Of a DNA stretch of 27,989 bases, positions 1 to 7,726 are shown piece by piece. The notes under the pieces are model-generated. The model did no database searches and had not been told where the DNA came from. It saw nothing but the letters and a program-made list of their open reading frames with translations. The stretch is from a phage. The stretch's first letter is position 1. Each line of letters starts with the position of its first letter. The stretch is taken from assembly GCA_025276375.1 (NCBI GenBank), contig GCA_025276375.1_3645.2, one strand, 5' to 3'. The position numbers were made by a program, and so were the translations under genes.

Positions 1-517
1 AAATATCTCTGATATGAAACCTACCCTTTGGGGATTGAGTTATTATCTTCATAGTATCCCCTGCGGCAATAGGTTTTCTAAGTCTTGGAGATATGCTTAT
101 AACAGCAGACCCAACACCATCGCTACGTACTGGAGCTGTTACCACTTTCAACTCATCATTGACAGATATTTTATCCCCAGCTCTAGCTATGTCTCTGTTT
201 GGCTCCCACCCAACCGTCTTCAAAAAATCGTCGTTACCAGTAGGCCCAAGGGCGATTGGCTCATTAGCTGTAACTGAGTGACCGTAAGTTTTAATGAGAA
301 AGATGTTCCCATCTTTATACACCTGATCAACAAAGCTCTTAAGCTCTAGCAACTGTGATTCGCTGATATTGGAAACCGTCAAAGTGCCTTTCCAGTTAGG
401 TGTGGCATAGGTTACTTTTTGCGTTTTACCTGTAAACGGACTTTTAAACGTAACAATATCTGCCAGCAGCTCCAATCTAATATCTGGAAGGTATCTAGGC
501 CTTTCCCATAAAAACAT
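1..517 (-). CDS. hypothetical protein, N-terminal part (gene runs off the window start)
   Basis: ATG at 517-515 preceded by GGAGG (plus 522-526 cctcc). Hand translation is open to position 1 with no stop (MFLWERPRYLPDIRLELLADIVTFKSPFTGKT...). Absent from the ORF track because no stop lies in the window. Sits downstream of the terminator that follows the large fibre gene. Confidence 0.5.
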   Translation of the reverse strand, partial: MFLWERPRYLPDIRLELLADIVTFKSPFTGKTQKVTYATPNWKGTLTVSNISESQLLELKSFVDQVYKDGNIFLIKTYGHSVTANEPIALGPTGNDDFLKTVGWEPNRDIARAGDKISVNDELKVVTAPVRSDGVGSAVISISPRLRKPIAAGDTMKIITQSPKGRFHIRDI

Positions 518-577: not shown

Positions 578-608
578 TACAAACAAAAAGCCCCCGCCGA
601 AGCGAGGG
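575..608 (-). terminator. intrinsic terminator after the large fibre gene
   Basis: Minus-strand RNA GCCCUCGC-UUCG-GCGGGGGC (8-bp stem with one G.U pair, UUCG loop) followed by UUUUUGUUUGUAUU, directly after the stop at 617-619. Confidence 0.6.
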
Positions 609-616
609 CAAAACAG

Positions 617-3600
617 TTACTTCAGTTTCTCTTGCAATCCAGTAACAACCTCTGTCAATTTTTTAACCTGCTCCTCAAGGGCGGTTATTTTATCGTCCTG
701 TTCCCTGCAAACCTGGACAAGCAAGCCTGTTACAGCTGCGTAGTCAACGTTATAGAACCTTTCCTCGGTCATCAGAGGAATACCGTCTTGAGTAGGACCT
801 TCTATTTCCTTCCTTTTCACGAAAGATCCTACTGCCTCTGGCAATGCTTCCATAACCTCTTGAGCAATCACGCCTGCATAAGGCATACCATTCTCTTTCA
901 AGGTGTAGGTATAGCCTTTCATCTTTCTAATTGCTTCCAGAGCGTTAGGTATGACCTCTATATTATCCTTCAGGTCTCTATCGGAACTTTGGCTAACAGT
1001 GGTACATACTACCGTGCCGTTGACAGCAAAATATCTTGATTTAGCCTCATCTGCCTTAGCTCCGCAGTGGAATACCCAGCTGCCGGCTGTTGAGTTATCA
1101 CTTATCTGAAACTCAAGCACATTCTTCCTATCAGCGCCATTACCCCAATAGTACAACCTGCCTGTATTAGAAGGCATGTTCGAAGTGTTGGTAACATCAG
1201 CACCACCACCTGTATGTATTGTGAACTCAGGTTCAAGATTGGACCCTTGAGTTTTTAAAGTGATACCCTTACCGCCAAGCTGCTGCCAATGGCCCCATGT
1301 GAAAACACCACCTATCGTTGTTCCATAACGCAGGAATTTTTCTCCAAGATATGTTGTATATTCCTGTACGCAACTCTCTGGAACGTTGGCATAGTTTCTA
1401 TAGACAAGGAGAGTACCTGCCTGAGAGCATGGGTAGTTTCTATCAAGTGCGGCTTGAGCATTGGCCTCCTGATGATAAAAACCCTCTCTATCTCCTTTGT
1501 AGTCGTTAAGGTCATTAGTTCCCAACCCTTGACCACGGTGCTGAATAACTTTGTTCCACGCTCTGTGGTTTCCCTGCTCTATGGAACGAGTGTACAACTG
1601 GTCTAAACGACCTGCCATCTGGAAAGCGTAGTTTCCAGAAAATGCCACAGACAACCCGCCAACAACCATTGAACCTTCAGGTCCGTTGACGTTGCCAGCC
1701 AGTATTTTGGATGGGTTGTTAGGCCCAAACTGGTTGTTCCAGTCTGCACCAGTGTGGCATACAAAACCACCAGGGGCTGAAAAAGTACCATCCTTATTGA
1801 AGTTGTAGAATCTATGAGCTGTGCCTACAATATCACGAACAATAACTTGACCAGCCTCTGGGGTGGATCTGAACTCTGCCTGTCCTTGCAGTCTTGCCCC
1901 ATTGCCGCATTTAGAGGTAAAGGTATTGTTGATCAGATCCTCTGTTCCTTCCGATGCAGCCTGGAACCCTGCGTTAGAGAACAATGCTTTTCGAGTGGTT
2001 TGGCTACCCGGACAAATGTAGTTAAGACCGTTGTACCACATCTCTACAGGAGGCATCTCTGTCTTACTCATCAGAACCATTCTATCAGGCGTGCCTATAT
2101 AGTGCCAGCCTGCACCACCACCCGTATAGAACCCTGATGTTCCCTTGAACTCAGCAAGAGGCCTGGTGTTTGTTACATCATCACCTTTAATTGCAAGACT
2201 TAAATTATCTGACGCAAGAGGGGCGCAAAACTTGACACCATCTTGGTTGTTAGTTACATTTCCTACCTGCCAGTCATTTTCTCTGGTAAATACCTCAAGA
2301 ACGTTTCTGCTTGCGTAGACACTGACAGGGAAAGCACGCGCCTCAACATAGAATGCAACATACTCCTGCTTCCCTCTAGTTGGAGCTATACACCCAAGAA
2401 TTGCTTTCTCGTTTTGGTAGAAATTAATAACCCCTTGGAAAGAATCCCCTCTGTCTGTCCAACCACCAGTTCTATAGTGACACTGTAAGGTCGCACAGTT
2501 CATAGGGTCACCACCAGATGACGACCTAGTAACTATGGTAATATCGGTGCCAATAGTTGGAGCACAATACGGATCTGTTCTAACGATGATTGGGTAGTAT
2601 TTCCCATCTTCCATCCCTGCAGTTCTTGGCAGTGTTAAGAAATCTTTGACACCAGCAGCTATAGGAACTTTGAACAGATTCTGAGCATCTGCCAGGGTTG
2701 TAGCCCCTGTACCACCTGCGGCTTGCGGTAAAGGTTCCCACTTGGCCTTCCGGTTGTTATAAACACCCCATTCCAAAGTGCCGTTACCGGATTCGTCCAT
2801 TCCACCATCCCAGACAACCATCTTGGCGGCTTTCTTGGATCCCCAGAAGCCTCTTTCTGCTCCTGAACTACGAATCCATTCTCCAAGTCCCCAGTTTGTC
2901 AACTGACCAGTAAGATCCCCAACCTGCATATATTTAGGGCAGTCTAATACGCCGTCTTCGCGGAAACCTAAATATCTATGGGTTTCAGATCCTTTTGCAC
3001 CTTTATGGAGGTGGATTGTCAACCAAGCCTTATTGTCGTTTCTTACCTCAGAATAGATCCTATACCCATGCTCAAGAACACCATCAGTATTATATTTATC
3101 TCCATGGAGAATACCTGAGGCCGACTTAACATCTCCAGAGTATTGAGCTAAGTAAAGGTGCCCGAAGGCTGGCGAGTTGTTTTTACCAAGGCCGATATGA
3201 GATCTGAAGGTATCATCGTTACGAGGTCTGACCATCGGCTGCCATGCAGTCCACTGATTTGTGTTGGCCTGATAGGTTCTCAAATACCAAACATCTACGT
3301 TAGAGAATGGATAGTATTCCTGACGACAACCTGTACCGCCGTTAGCGTTGTTCTGCCAAACAATCAAGTGACCAGCACCAGAACCTGCAGGGTAACCATT
3401 TGCCTCAGTTGCATAAGCAGTCATTGGCTGGTAGTATACACCATCCTGATTACCAGTCAAGTTATTGATATTGAAATTTGGCTCAAGGGCTGCACGTTGC
3501 TTATAGAAAGCACCGATATTGATACGGATTCCAGCGGCATCTCTAGCCCCTGTGCCGCCCTGCTCTATAGCAAGAGGCTGCCAAGAAGCTGTTTGTTGGT

Positions 3601-4423
3601 TCCACATACCCCAACGGCCTGTTGCATCAAGCTGCAAGTACCCTGCTGTGTTTAAATCATCTCCAGCACGAATAACTGTTCTTGTTGGGTTGTTTGCCTC
3701 TAGGCGTTTAAATTCATCACGAAGTGCTATTCTTTTTGTTGTTGCTACACCGTTGGTTACTGCAATGGTATACATTGCTCCGGAGGTAGCACCACGGAAA
3801 ATACCATCAACAGTTGTAGTATCACGACGAGATACCACACCGTTCAGAAATTTTTCACCAGCTGCTACAGAAGGGTAGTTGGTAGTTCTTCCCTCTTCAA
3901 TAACTGCAGGGCCAACAAAGTTATCAAGGTGAATAACATCGCCTACAGTGTGCACTGTACCAAAATCTACACGCTGTGCAAGTGCTTTGGCATCGTTAGC
4001 TGTCTGAACAGTAACATCCATTACATCCTGGACAGACTGCCCTTCGGCTGTCATGATCATGGATGCGCCAATGGTAGATTCCAGCTCCTCCCTTAAGGAC
4101 GGGTCAGTATATACCATCCATGCAGCGTCAGTAATCCCGCCATCGGAGTACGGTGAAGATAGTGCAGGAACAGTGTGCGGAAATTCGCCTTTCCAACGCA
4201 GGTAGAGGTCTTCCTCTTCGAAGTAGGCAAAATCCATTGGGCCGTTTAACTTACCACCTTCCTTAAAGGAGATTACATGAGAAACAGTCCCATCAACATG
4301 GACAACATCGCCAATTTTTACACGACGGGTCAGGTCTGGTTGTTGAACAACCAGGTAATCATCCTCTGTCACTGCGGTAGTGGCAGGAAGAGATTCAATT
4401 CTGACAACTTTAATATCAGCCAT
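617..4423 (-). CDS. tail fibre / tailspike protein (1268 aa) with N-terminal virion-attachment domain and C-terminal S74-type intramolecular chaperone domain
   Basis: N-terminal ~105 aa share motifs with the 222-aa protein at 7058-7726 (LVVQQPDLTRRVKIGDVV vs LVVNQTDGTRKAKIDDVV; FKEGGKL...DFAY vs FTEGGYL...DFAY). C-terminal ~120 aa (SDRDLKDNIEVIPNALEAIRKMKGYTYTLKENG...) match the autoproteolytic chaperone domain of endosialidase and T5 L-shaped fibre type proteins. SD GGAGA upstream of the ATG at 4423. Confidence 0.8.
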   Translation of the reverse strand: MADIKVVRIESLPATTAVTEDDYLVVQQPDLTRRVKIGDVVHVDGTVSHVISFKEGGKLNGPMDFAYFEEEDLYLRWKGEFPHTVPALSSPYSDGGITDAAWMVYTDPSLREELESTIGASMIMTAEGQSVQDVMDVTVQTANDAKALAQRVDFGTVHTVGDVIHLDNFVGPAVIEEGRTTNYPSVAAGEKFLNGVVSRRDTTTVDGIFRGATSGAMYTIAVTNGVATTKRIALRDEFKRLEANNPTRTVIRAGDDLNTAGYLQLDATGRWGMWNQQTASWQPLAIEQGGTGARDAAGIRINIGAFYKQRAALEPNFNINNLTGNQDGVYYQPMTAYATEANGYPAGSGAGHLIVWQNNANGGTGCRQEYYPFSNVDVWYLRTYQANTNQWTAWQPMVRPRNDDTFRSHIGLGKNNSPAFGHLYLAQYSGDVKSASGILHGDKYNTDGVLEHGYRIYSEVRNDNKAWLTIHLHKGAKGSETHRYLGFREDGVLDCPKYMQVGDLTGQLTNWGLGEWIRSSGAERGFWGSKKAAKMVVWDGGMDESGNGTLEWGVYNNRKAKWEPLPQAAGGTGATTLADAQNLFKVPIAAGVKDFLTLPRTAGMEDGKYYPIIVRTDPYCAPTIGTDITIVTRSSSGGDPMNCATLQCHYRTGGWTDRGDSFQGVINFYQNEKAILGCIAPTRGKQEYVAFYVEARAFPVSVYASRNVLEVFTRENDWQVGNVTNNQDGVKFCAPLASDNLSLAIKGDDVTNTRPLAEFKGTSGFYTGGGAGWHYIGTPDRMVLMSKTEMPPVEMWYNGLNYICPGSQTTRKALFSNAGFQAASEGTEDLINNTFTSKCGNGARLQGQAEFRSTPEAGQVIVRDIVGTAHRFYNFNKDGTFSAPGGFVCHTGADWNNQFGPNNPSKILAGNVNGPEGSMVVGGLSVAFSGNYAFQMAGRLDQLYTRSIEQGNHRAWNKVIQHRGQGLGTNDLNDYKGDREGFYHQEANAQAALDRNYPCSQAGTLLVYRNYANVPESCVQEYTTYLGEKFLRYGTTIGGVFTWGHWQQLGGKGITLKTQGSNLEPEFTIHTGGGADVTNTSNMPSNTGRLYYWGNGADRKNVLEFQISDNSTAGSWVFHCGAKADEAKSRYFAVNGTVVCTTVSQSSDRDLKDNIEVIPNALEAIRKMKGYTYTLKENGMPYAGVIAQEVMEALPEAVGSFVKRKEIEGPTQDGIPLMTEERFYNVDYAAVTGLLVQVCREQDDKITALEEQVKKLTEVVTGLQEKLK
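620..985 (-). other. C-terminal intramolecular chaperone (peptidase S74-like) domain of the fibre, predicted to be self-cleaved near the Ser of SDRDLKDNIE
   Basis: Last 122 residues of the 1268-aa protein begin with the conserved S-D-x-x-L-K-x-N-I-E motif, followed by a hydrophobic/coiled-coil tail. Confidence 0.6.
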
Positions 4424-4437
4424 TCTTTCTCCTGAAA

Positions 4438-4454
4438 GGGGGCAAACAGCCCCC
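4438..4454 (-). other. perfect GC hairpin between the two fibre genes (attenuator or RNA-processing site; weak terminator)
   Basis: Minus-strand GGGGGC-UGUUU-GCCCCC followed by only UUUC, then the SD and start of the 1268-aa gene. Confidence 0.3.
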
Positions 4455-4458
4455 TATG

Positions 4459-7056
4459 TTAAAGGTACAATCCACGGTATTGAGCATAAAGGCCCAGACC
4501 GCGAAGGATTTCGCCAGAGTGATAGCCAACCGGATCAGAAACTGCCCAGCAGCCGTTTAAAATATTATCCCCATTAATGAAGTGGTGCTTTTGCAGTAGC
4601 TTCACACAGGCTTCCACAACAATATCTATTTGAGGTATTGTCTCTGAATACCCGCACAGACCTAGCCAGCAGCAACCTGCAAGCCATTCACCTACCACCC
4701 ACATCCTGTCTCCTCTGTCTTGATAAGAATATCCCCCAGAGGTGTTAAAGTCTGTGGGCAGATTTCCTGAATGAGATGACTGGAATCTGTTGAGGAACCA
4801 TGCCCATTTCTGGCAGAACAGGAATAGTCTTTCATCAACAGGTTCTTTATGTTTCTTGAGCTCATATATTGTGCGGCACGCAGCAACAAAAGATCTTGAC
4901 TGGAGTTTAGAGTTATCTACCATCTCCCACCAACCAGTCAGCCCTTCATTACCTCTCTGCCATACATAACGCGAGGCAACTGGACCCTCTGTCTTAAATG
5001 TATTATTATACCAGACTTGAGCGTCATACAGAAAGCCTATTGTATTTGACAATCTATGGCGATCTATGTTTTCTGCACCCATGCAGTAGACTGCTGGATA
5101 TTGCATGCCAGGGTAGGGCCAATTTGGCTTTTCCTCTAAGAGATAGTTTTCCTTATCTATCACCTTTCCGGCAGGGAACACACCAGGAGTGTGCCTGTAT
5201 GCACCTTGCTTGTAGTTTCTGACATAGCAATCACCAACCTTAGCGGTTGATTCTGTCTTGCTTGCCATCCATACGCTAAACCAGATTAGATAAGCATCCC
5301 TATCCGCGATATAAAATTGCGGCAGTGTGTTGACGCAATACAGATCAAACAATCCATTACCTATCTGCCTGTCGCTTAGGCTGAAATCTACAGAGGTGAG
5401 CCCCTTAGGATTAGCAAAGAAAGGTTTAATCTCTTCTTCGGTGTGATGAGGTTGTGTTGGATCTAGTTTGAAATCTCCTAGAGTAAGAGTTTCTGTTATC
5501 CATTGTCCATTAGTGGCATATAGATCAGCATACCATAACCACTTGTCTTTGTCAAGAAATTTGACCCTTACCATCTCATCATCTGATCGATAAGTTACTG
5601 AGTTTAAAGAAATCTCTCTTCCAAAATTGAAAGTTACTTTGCCTCTTGCTATATTACAACGGGTGAAGTTGTCAGAGTGGTTGTAAATGTCGGTATCGTA
5701 CTGCATACTAACACTGGCACCACCGCTCACGGCAATGTTTTCCTCTCTAGGTAAGAGGTACGGATTACCGTCTTTACCAACTACCTCTACGAAATCAGTA
5801 ACCTTGGCAACTATTCCTGTTACCTCTGCACCTCCAAAAGGGACACCTATCCTGTACTGTTTTTTGTTATTGTTGCCATCATTAAGGATGAAATGTGGCT
5901 GGAACAGAACCCCCTCCCCTCCGAAATTCATAACAATTTCAGCATCTCTGCCTATTTTGTATGTAGTCCCTTTTTGAATTATTTCGCAAGGCTGGCGTGC
6001 GTTCATTCTAAAATTGATATACCCGTCACTATCCCTGCTCATGACAGGAACTGTTCCTGCAACAAGACAAGCACCATCTGTAAATGGTGCCTTAATCAAT
6101 GTGGTCTTTCTAAACAGTTTGTCGTAGGCGTTTATATCACTGAAATTAAGCAACTTGTTGTAAGACTGTTTAAACGCGGTGTAGTACTTTTCCTCACCTG
6201 TCAAGGTGTAGAGTTGATAACAAGCGTCACACCACATTTCTTCCCCGTCCAACTCTGGGGCTTGATTGTCTGCAATCACGTTTATAGGATTCACAATTAC
6301 AGGGGATCCAGCAGGGATCACCGAGCCACCCTGCTCTTGAGGTAATCTTACACAATAGGTCACCTTGTGGCTTCCTGTAACACCCTTATCTTGTAATTGG
6401 ATTGTGCCGAACTCTACAGACGTATGACCACTGTCGGCTATGCTACCGTTAGCCCAATAGCGGTTACCATCCCATGCTATATACCACTCAACCCACCAAC
6501 TTAATCCGGATGTTGTCCAATCTGGGTTAGCATCTGTGCCACCGTAAACATCGGAGTCTACCGTGTTTCTTCCTAACACACCGTTATACGCTTGGAATGC
6601 CTTGTCCAGGTATTCTCCCCATGTCGGAGATCCAGCTGGGATTTTTCCTCTACCATTGGTAAAAGACACCACCACATCTTTAAACCCACCATGTGATGGA
6701 ACCCCATCTGTAGATAGAGGGTAGTGGGACAATCTTTGCATTTTACTTTCTACTGCATATGCACCCAGAAGATGACTATTGTAAGCTTCCCAAGCATCTT
6801 TTGCCCTATCCAGATAGAAATCGCTTTTCGATGCCCTGTATGCTTCAATGTATCCCAGAATCAACACAGCTTGGGACTCATGCATTGCCCAATCATTATT
6901 TATCTTATTACCTGCCCACCCTGCAGCTATAAGACCATCAGGGTTTACTAGCTTATTTTGTGTAGGGGTGTTGGTAATACCTGTGTTGTTATCGAGGCAC
7001 TTCCTGTGCCCCTCAATCATCTGAAATACGTTATCAATGTTATGTTGAATACGCAT
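4459..7056 (-). CDS. second receptor-binding protein / putative enzymatic tailspike (865 aa) lacking the shared N-terminal attachment domain
   Basis: Large ORF immediately downstream of the 222-aa attachment-domain protein, with start ATG 7056-7054 one nt after that gene's stop (7060-7058). Trp-rich segments at both termini. No attachment motif. Function inferred from context and size. Confidence 0.55.
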   Translation of the reverse strand: MRIQHNIDNVFQMIEGHRKCLDNNTGITNTPTQNKLVNPDGLIAAGWAGNKINNDWAMHESQAVLILGYIEAYRASKSDFYLDRAKDAWEAYNSHLLGAYAVESKMQRLSHYPLSTDGVPSHGGFKDVVVSFTNGRGKIPAGSPTWGEYLDKAFQAYNGVLGRNTVDSDVYGGTDANPDWTTSGLSWWVEWYIAWDGNRYWANGSIADSGHTSVEFGTIQLQDKGVTGSHKVTYCVRLPQEQGGSVIPAGSPVIVNPINVIADNQAPELDGEEMWCDACYQLYTLTGEEKYYTAFKQSYNKLLNFSDINAYDKLFRKTTLIKAPFTDGACLVAGTVPVMSRDSDGYINFRMNARQPCEIIQKGTTYKIGRDAEIVMNFGGEGVLFQPHFILNDGNNNKKQYRIGVPFGGAEVTGIVAKVTDFVEVVGKDGNPYLLPREENIAVSGGASVSMQYDTDIYNHSDNFTRCNIARGKVTFNFGREISLNSVTYRSDDEMVRVKFLDKDKWLWYADLYATNGQWITETLTLGDFKLDPTQPHHTEEEIKPFFANPKGLTSVDFSLSDRQIGNGLFDLYCVNTLPQFYIADRDAYLIWFSVWMASKTESTAKVGDCYVRNYKQGAYRHTPGVFPAGKVIDKENYLLEEKPNWPYPGMQYPAVYCMGAENIDRHRLSNTIGFLYDAQVWYNNTFKTEGPVASRYVWQRGNEGLTGWWEMVDNSKLQSRSFVAACRTIYELKKHKEPVDERLFLFCQKWAWFLNRFQSSHSGNLPTDFNTSGGYSYQDRGDRMWVVGEWLAGCCWLGLCGYSETIPQIDIVVEACVKLLQKHHFINGDNILNGCWAVSDPVGYHSGEILRGLGLYAQYRGLYL

Positions 7057-7057
7057 C

Positions 7058-7726
7058 TTAGATAGCTCCTGCGATAATCAGTGCCCCGTACCAAGTTAAC
7101 CCGTTGTCGTAGGTTTCCAACTTGAAAATGTCTGTTGCACCAGCTGTAAATGTTAGGATAGGATCTCTTCCGTAGGACCATTTAACATTACCGGGCCAAT
7201 AGACTTTGTTGCCGCCAGAGGTCTGAGTAATGCATACGGTTATAGTTCTCGCCACCCCTTCAAGACCTTCTGTTTGATTTTCAAAAGAGATTGTGGTATT
7301 TGAAGTTAGTCGAACCTTAAAGGTATCCGCAACTTCAAGATCCATATCAAGCTGACCACCGATAGATCCGTAATCAACTATTCTGCCAGAAGAAGTTGCA
7401 GCAAGCTCACCAAAAACAGACCAGGCATTTGCAGACACACCCCCAGCACCCTCTACAGTAGAGTCTGGGAGGATTATTTTAGGATAATCCCCGTTCCACG
7501 TGTAGTAGCGCTTAGTTTCTGGATCATAAGCAAAGTCCTTCTTGCTCTTAAGATAACCACCCTCTGTGAAATAGACTATCTTAGTGATGCTAAGATCGTT
7601 GACAACATCGTCAATCTTAGCCTTTCTTGTCCCATCAGTCTGGTTGACAACCAAGAAGTCATCACTCAGGACTGTTTCTGCATCTTCAAGATCTGGAATT
7701 GGTATTGTAGGATAAGCTACAGCCAT
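7058..7726 (-). CDS. tail fibre attachment/adaptor protein (222 aa) sharing the N-terminal domain of the large fibre
   Basis: About 40% identity by eye over ~105 N-terminal residues with the 1268-aa protein. Short C-terminal region. Translationally coupled to the 865-aa gene. Confidence 0.55.
   Translation of the reverse strand: MAVAYPTIPIPDLEDAETVLSDDFLVVNQTDGTRKAKIDDVVNDLSITKIVYFTEGGYLKSKKDFAYDPETKRYYTWNGDYPKIILPDSTVEGAGGVSANAWSVFGELAATSSGRIVDYGSIGGQLDMDLEVADTFKVRLTSNTTISFENQTEGLEGVARTITVCITQTSGGNKVYWPGNVKWSYGRDPILTFTAGATDIFKLETYDNGLTWYGALIIAGAI

Follow-up and report, generated by a model that had tools for sequence, protein, structure and literature searches.

The last 122 residues of the large lateral tail fibre encoded in the window (the whole 27,989-nucleotide stretch of phage DNA analysed here) form, with a probability that we put at close to nine in ten, a functional self-cleaving chaperone domain of the Peptidase S74 type (residues 1147-1268). 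The presence of a C-terminal intramolecular chaperone domain of this type is supported by the Pfam match, the conservation of the catalytic dyad, the profile searches and the predicted fold. Its trimer-dependent self-cleavage, the exact scissile bond and its absence from the virion we infer by analogy with related systems. The family and the mechanism of the domain, as well as its occurrence in this very gene lineage, have already been published, and the finding is, therefore, correct but ordinary: in the 2013 description of the rV5 genome and proteome, gp41 appears as “L-shaped tail fiber protein; PF13884.1 Peptidase_S74” (PMC3606486), and the RBPseg paper of 2025 mentions the S74 domain for fibres of Vequintavirinae and notes its known self-cleavage (PMC12143355).

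The fibre gene and its surroundings

The domain belongs to a complete gene on the minus strand, which is delimited as follows:

617..4423, minus strand: large lateral (L-shaped-type) tail fibre precursor, complete gene (from the list of open reading frames; 1268 aa, 138.9 kDa)
4115..4288, minus strand: N-terminal anchoring domain, residues 46-103 (Tail_spike_N, TSP1/Gp66 type; PF18668)
590..609, minus strand: terminator-like GC-rich hairpin with a T-run, 8 nt past the fibre stop (from the sequence)

The stop codon of the fibre gene lies at 617-619 (minus strand), and the hairpin behind it marks where the fibre transcription unit ends; in phage Murica a terminator is annotated at the equivalent position. 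An open reading frame of 135 aa on the plus strand (632..1039), antisense to the fibre gene, was taken to be spurious. The gene is flanked by one for an 865-aa glycosidase-like tail protein and one for a distal tail protein, the latter (PHROG 1302, E=1.5e-45) being the next gene after the fibre. The window is from a Vequintavirus, i.e., an rV5-like myophage of E. coli. The fibre gene shows 87-93% nucleotide identity to its counterparts in about 80 Vequintavirus genomes; for the rest of the window (23.6 kb) the identity to PDX and rV5 is ~96%. By synteny the gene is the orthologue of rV5 gp41, Bas58_0027 and Bas54_0027, and the latter two, from BASEL phages, are annotated as “lateral tail fiber protein.” The whole 1268-aa protein matches PHROG 6578, ‘tail fiber protein’, with E=0.

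Pfam recognises two domains only in the 1268-aa fibre, Tail_spike_N and Peptidase_S74. The former covers residues 46-103 (E=2.2e-10, 40.9 bits against a cut-off of 25), and a sequence search of the PDB likewise matched the N-terminus to those of tailspikes and fibres. The S74 domain is the final 122 of the 1268 residues of a tail-fibre protein with a tailspike N-terminal anchor. Since Pfam shows only these two domains, an identity as endosialidase was rejected: no sialidase or other catalytic domain was found by Pfam in the 1268 residues, and no endosialidase chains occurred among the PDB sequence matches of the whole fibre. The label ‘endo-N-acetylneuraminidase’ on the PDX orthologue appears to have been carried over from the name of the chaperone domain.

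Presence of the S74 domain

It had been proposed from the sequence that the last ~122 residues of the fibre are an S74 chaperone domain, and the translation of the open reading frame, Pfam, the profile searches and the fold all agree with this. The interval given for it, 617-985, proved exact: its reverse complement encodes 122 residues and a stop (the strand, minus, had been left unstated). The domain and the part of it covered by the Pfam model are located as follows:

620..985, minus strand: C-terminal intramolecular chaperone domain (Peptidase S74), residues 1147-1268, 122 aa, 13.7 kDa (Pfam, conservation, profile, fold)
830..985, minus strand: stretch under the Pfam S74 model, residues 1147-1198 (model positions 1-57 of 58)

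The 122-residue domain begins with SDRDLKDNIEVI. Translated on the reverse complement, 617-985 reads SDRDLKDNIEVIPNALEAIRKMKGYTYTLKENGMPYAGVIAQEVMEALPEAVGSFVKRKEIEGPTQDGIPLMTEERFYNVDYAAVTGLLVQVCREQDDKITALEEQVKKLTEVVTGLQEKLK, i.e., 122 residues, with the stop at 617-619; taken codon by codon on the minus strand, from 985 down to 620, it runs SDRDLKDNIEVIPNALEAIRKMKGYTYTLKENG...LQEKLK.

The original prediction had named a profile search for the S74 family as a check, and this returned PF13884 (Peptidase_S74, “chaperone of endosialidase”) well above threshold, with E=7.1e-15 and 55.5 bits for the whole fibre and E=2.5e-16 for the 122 residues alone; overall the scores, 55-60 bits, compare with a gathering threshold of 22 bits. 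The alignment starts at model position 1 with S1147, the proposed Ser. With the 122 residues alone 30 PHROG families were matched (tail-fibre, tail-spike and others). Within the collection searched, 777 phage records contain the PF13884 domain.

Searches of the PDB with the C-terminus as a single sequence reached only S16 gp37 and MYRF; it took searches by profile and by fold to reach 3GW6 and 4UW8. With the last 160 residues 120 homologues were collected from the database, and the profile built on 56 of them matched S16 gp37 (6F45, E=1.6e-18), the ICA domain of MYRF (7DC3, 1e-10), the tail fibre 8JOV (2e-5) and, weakly, the chaperone of the GA-1 appendage (3GUD), the chain of which starts with SDERHK.

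The C-terminus could also be merely a helical tail that resembles the family by chance or through low complexity (coiled coil), and indeed its last 40 residues are coiled-coil-like and draw many weak matches to helices only. However, the Pfam match sits in the non-helical first 52 residues (E=7e-15) and the profile and fold matches span the whole domain. Together the Pfam, profile and fold searches rule out such a chance resemblance, to which we assign practically no weight.

Predicted fold

AlphaFold2 modelled the last 160 residues with a mean pLDDT of 88.8. The model combines a small alpha/beta core with a beta-hairpin and a C-terminal helix of 40 residues, the architecture by which the fold of this family is recognised. 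Two of these elements map to the DNA as follows:

746..832, minus strand: predicted beta-hairpin, residues 1198-1226 (model strands E90-98 and E110-118)
623..742, minus strand: C-terminal long helix, residues 1228-1267 (model helix H120-159, pLDDT 93-98)

We take the hairpin of the model to correspond to the ‘tentacle’ hairpin described for the T5 chaperone (PMC4690869). In the last 22 residues the helix follows a regular 3-4 heptad pattern (I1246, L1249, V1253, L1256, V1260, L1263, and L1267) and is predicted to form a trimeric coiled coil or leucine zipper. When the model was compared with the PDB using Foldseek, the ten best matches were all to 7DC3, 3GW6, and 4UW8, after which the E value jumps from 1e-3 to 0.3. 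Above this background only four solved chaperone-domain structures were recovered, i.e., those of the MYRF ICA, T5 pb1, the GA-1 appendage and the K1F endosialidase. The fold of the entire 122 residues, thus, matches only known chaperone-domain structures.

Catalytic dyad and predicted site of cleavage

The domain opens with the motif S1147-D-R-D-L-K1152, which fits the S-D-x-x-x-K (i/i+5) spacing of the family. S1147, its first Ser, is encoded by the codon at 983-985 (minus strand). Conservation among the 120 database homologues is nearly complete for S1147 (106/108) and D1148 (109/110) and complete for K1152 (113/113); G1170 and G1184 are invariant among these same homologues of the fibre C-terminus. 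The dyads of T5 pb1 (S1264/K1269; PMC4690869) and MYRF (S578/K583; PMC3742443) have the same spacing as S1147/K1152.

The position of the cut can be predicted from related proteins. T5 pb1 is cleaved at Thr1263-Ser1264, with the Ser departing with the chaperone (PMC4690869); S16 gp37 is cut between two serines, ...DLNVS^SDRRIKK (PMC7917993); and the C-terminal product of MYRF starts at S578 (PMC3742443). By analogy, cleavage of the present fibre should fall between S1146 and S1147, which coincides with the N-terminal edge of the stretch named in the original prediction. This would leave residue 1146 as the C-terminal end of the mature fibre, ...AVNGTVVCTTVSQS (...CTTVSQS). The corresponding features are:

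983..988, minus strand: predicted scissile bond S1146-S1147, ...TVSQS then SDRDLK, with S1147 as the nucleophile (from the S16 and T5 cleavage sites and the conservation of S1147)
968..970, minus strand: K1152, general base of the Ser/Lys dyad (Ser +5; invariant in 113/113 homologues)
986..4423, minus strand: predicted mature virion fibre, residues 1-1146, 125.3 kDa (mass computed, boundary from the S16 and T5 sites)

Processing at this bond is predicted to yield a mature fibre of 1146 aa (~125 kDa) and a released fragment of 13.7 kDa, in line with the ~120-residue shortening of the virion fibre put forward in the original prediction.

The arginine that forms the oxyanion hole and acts as a folding sensor in this family, Arg1250 in T5, comes from the preceding domain of a neighbouring subunit. 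R1130 is at most a candidate for its counterpart in the fibre studied here. It is kept in each of the eight S74-bearing Vequintavirus fibres of the comparison, even where the tip is only ~50% identical; in the wider homologues the same alignment column holds Q, Y or A, and the structure model is monomeric, so its position in a trimer is not readable from it.

The S74-like domain could be real and yet remain uncleaved, staying on the virion as a distal knob, either because the protease is degenerate or because the domain serves as a permanent cap. In line with this, conservation has not pinned down a counterpart of the oxyanion-stabilising Arg, and the mass spectrometry of the rV5 virion (see below) is uninformative. 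However, the Ser/Asp/Lys motif is complete and hardly varies among the homologues, T5 pb1 with its chaperone still attached fails to inhibit adsorption (PMC4690869), and the map of the MaxBurger virion lacks S74 density (PMC12143355). Permanent retention is, consequently, in our estimation very unlikely, and we favour a domain that is cleaved off.

Virion data on orthologous fibres

In the RBPseg study of BASEL phages (2025, cryo-EM) the MaxBurger fibre RBP_11 was reported to have a C-terminal S74 domain (PMC12143355). We infer that RBP_11 is Bas54_0027, i.e., the orthologue of the fibre studied here, because the description in that paper fits the C-terminal swap between EmilHeitz and MaxBurger. 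The S74 density was absent on RBP_11 in the virion map, “as expected,” although the maps reach only 7-9.5 A (PMC12143355) and other causes, e.g., flexibility, are possible. The missing density is, therefore, supporting evidence for cleavage and not proof.

For the rV5 virion, mass spectrometry recovered eight peptides of gp41, all upstream of the C-terminal domain, at a coverage of 8% (PMC3606486). Only 6 of the 62 detectable tryptic peptides lie in the domain, and the chance that none of these would be among the eight is P=0.44. The rV5 data, thus, neither support nor contradict cleavage, and the distribution of the peptides was rejected as evidence for it.

Variation among Vequintavirus fibres

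The chaperone domain is 90-100% identical across Vequintavirus, and the N-terminal 400 residues are 97-100% identical to those of rV5 gp41 and its Vequintavirus orthologues. The tip just upstream of the domain (residues 971-1146) is the most variable part among the orthologues. Its identity is about 50% to rV5, MaxBurger, and Murica, whereas it is 97-99% to HeinrichReichert, magaca, and rV5_ev147, which indicates that the window carries one of several tip alleles. The fibre of MaxBurger (Bas54_0027) is a full-length orthologue with a chaperone domain that is 91% identical. That of EmilHeitz (Bas49_0026) shares residues 1-1048 with the present fibre, then diverges and is without the SD...K motif.

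Within the domain, the codon differences from FV3 are 40 synonymous and 7 non-synonymous, and those from Murica 23 synonymous and 6 non-synonymous. The S74 domain is, hence, under purifying selection though it is predicted to be discarded. Judged from these codon comparisons, such selection on a discarded segment would be consistent with a role in folding and trimerising the part of the fibre upstream of it.

Proposed maturation of the fibre

By analogy with the systems in which the family has been studied, three precursor chains would associate via the C-terminal helix, as a trimeric coiled coil, and via the alpha/beta core. This association would set the register in which the interdigitated distal tip of the fibre folds. 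Only in a correctly folded trimer would Ser1147 be placed next to Lys1152; K1152 would then activate S1147, which would attack the S1146-S1147 peptide bond. The 13.7-kDa fragment would leave as a trimer and the virion would keep the 1146-residue fibre of ~125 kDa, with its distal tip uncovered. In the case of T5 pb1, a fibre fragment with uncleaved chaperone no longer competes for the receptor or inhibits adsorption (PMC4690869), which its authors took to mean that the receptor site is masked (PMC4690869). Since the uncleaved chaperone blocks receptor competition in T5, exposure of the tip probably activates binding in the Vequintavirus fibre too.

The removal of the domain might, however, mainly expose a surface at which an adhesin from a separate gene docks, in the style of S16 gp37-gp38, in which case specificity would reside in another gene. 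This would be in keeping with the fact that, of the solved structures, S16 gp37 is nearest to the C-terminus in sequence, with the release of the S16 chaperone exposing the docking site of gp38 (PMC7917993), and with the suggestion by the RBPseg authors of a gp38-like adhesin for the MaxBurger fibre (PMC12143355). Yet a gp38-like gene, looked for at the locus only, is absent directly after the fibre gene, where the terminator-like hairpin 8 nt past the stop is followed by the gene for the distal tail protein. Moreover, the MaxBurger map is without adhesin density (PMC12143355), and the tip (971-1146) is the most variable part of the fibre, which would be expected of a part in direct contact with the host. 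Docking of an adhesin is, consequently, an unlikely explanation of what cleavage exposes. We consider just as unlikely its extended form, in which chaperone release unmasks such a surface, the specificity gene lies elsewhere, and residues ~1049-1268 are an ending that can be exchanged for at least one other, the chaperone-free head of EmilHeitz. S16-like docking of an adhesin is less likely than binding by the exposed tip itself.

Significance

The finding matters little beyond a correct annotation of the virion protein, which is predicted to be 1146 aa (~125 kDa) and not 1268 aa (139 kDa). This predicted size bears on virion proteomics, on the fitting of Vequintavirus fibres in cryo-EM maps and on the design of recombinant fibres. 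If the analogy with the studied systems holds, the domain would have to stay in recombinant constructs for folding, and S1147A would be expected to give the uncleaved form. The identification of the S74 domain also guards against calling the fibre gene an endosialidase.

Comparison with known systems

The nearest relatives are rV5 gp41 (YP_002003543, 1272 aa), Bas58_0027 (HeinrichReichert) and Bas54_0027 (MaxBurger), which are the same gene at the same position as here. For the C-terminus of rV5 gp41 an HHpred match to 3GW6 and a high coiled-coil probability (PCOILS) have been reported (PMC3606486). The 2026 paper on the structure of phi92 makes no mention of chaperone domains or cleavage.

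Among the solved structures S16 gp37 (PDB 6F45) is the best sequence match and shares the motif of ...S followed by SDR..K... Its chaperone is of much the same length, 113 aa compared with 122 aa here. In S16, gp37 forms the distal half-fibre in a long tail fibre of the T4-like kind and, once cleaved, docks the adhesin gp38, whereas in the window a gp38-like gene is not adjacent to the fibre gene. T5 pb1 was not detected by a simple sequence search with the present fibre; its hairpin has 40 residues while the one predicted here is shorter, about 29. Compared with the K1F endosialidase (3GW6) and the GA-1 neck appendage (3GUD), the present fibre is without a sialidase or other catalytic domain detectable by Pfam. 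The K1F domain also has a long extra loop (T977-H1026), which is missing from most members of the family (PMC3742443). The ICA of MYRF (7DC3) is part of a eukaryotic membrane-bound transcription factor; there the domain lies inside the chain, and what it releases is an N-terminal trimer that binds DNA.

Mosaicism of the large fibre gene

Judged from its sequence, the gene of the large fibre (a 1268-aa tail fibre precursor; window 617-4423, minus strand) is a mosaic. Residues 1-400 of its protein are 97-100% identical in every Vequintavirus compared, and residues 701-970 are 81-92% identical among the Vequintavirus orthologues compared. The tip that follows (residues 971-1146; window 986-1510) occurs as at least two alleles among these orthologues: that of the window shares 97-99% identity with HeinrichReichert, magaca and rV5_ev147, and only ~50% with rV5, MaxBurger and Murica. 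The C-terminal S74 chaperone domain is 90-100% identical throughout the orthologues compared, whichever tip allele is present.

A different C-terminus is found in EmilHeitz, whose fibre orthologue was compared with the product of window 617-4423:

EmilHeitz locus (L008) 1501-5937: Bas49_0026, fibre orthologue, 1478 aa

The two proteins match over the first ~1048 residues, with 84-99% identity to residue 970 and 56% over residues 971-1048, but beyond this point the C-terminus of Bas49_0026 is unrelated to that of the window's fibre, and the comparison revealed neither the SD...K motif (the Ser/Lys dyad at the start of the chaperone domain) nor an S74 domain in it. This looks like a natural swap, in which the tip plus its intramolecular chaperone would have been exchanged for another head; the head swap of the EmilHeitz fibre has been described in the RBPseg cryo-EM study of BASEL phage fibres (PMC12143355). 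At its stop codon, Bas49_0026 is overlapped by a small ORF, Bas49_0027, for a hypothetical protein of 110 aa, and the other head is perhaps accompanied by a separate chaperone.

Annotation of related records

In PDX (MG963916.1) the orthologue of window 617-4423 is labelled "endo-N-acetylneuraminidase". A Pfam search detected no sialidase domain in the protein family of the large fibre, and the label is probably an over-annotation derived from the domain name "chaperone of endosialidase".

Searches of the phage collection with window 617-4423 and 4424-27989 recovered rV5-like sequence under the name "Campylobacter phage" in ~18-25 GenBank records (MG0656xx), for which C. jejuni is the stated host. 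Lengths are 128-143 kb for the records listed in full and 25 kb for one listed record, a fragment. The E. coli-type fibre and structural module of the window are present in these records. Their host label looks doubtful.

Organization of the fibre locus

Window 590-609, minus strand: terminator-like hairpin, GCCCTCGCTTCGGCGGGGGC then TTTTTGTTTG, starting 8 nt past the fibre stop codon
Window 1-517, minus strand: distal-tail-protein gene, next after the fibre gene
Window 7058-7726, minus strand: gp43-like protein, 222 aa, with Tail_spike_N (PF18668, E=2e-10)

Because of this hairpin, and because a terminator is annotated at the equivalent position in the Murica record, the transcription unit seems to end with the fibre gene, before the distal-tail-protein gene. 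The gp43-like protein and the large fibre have the Tail_spike_N anchor domain in common, which suggests that several fibre proteins of the locus may attach via one kind of N-terminal module, comparable to branched tailspike complexes.
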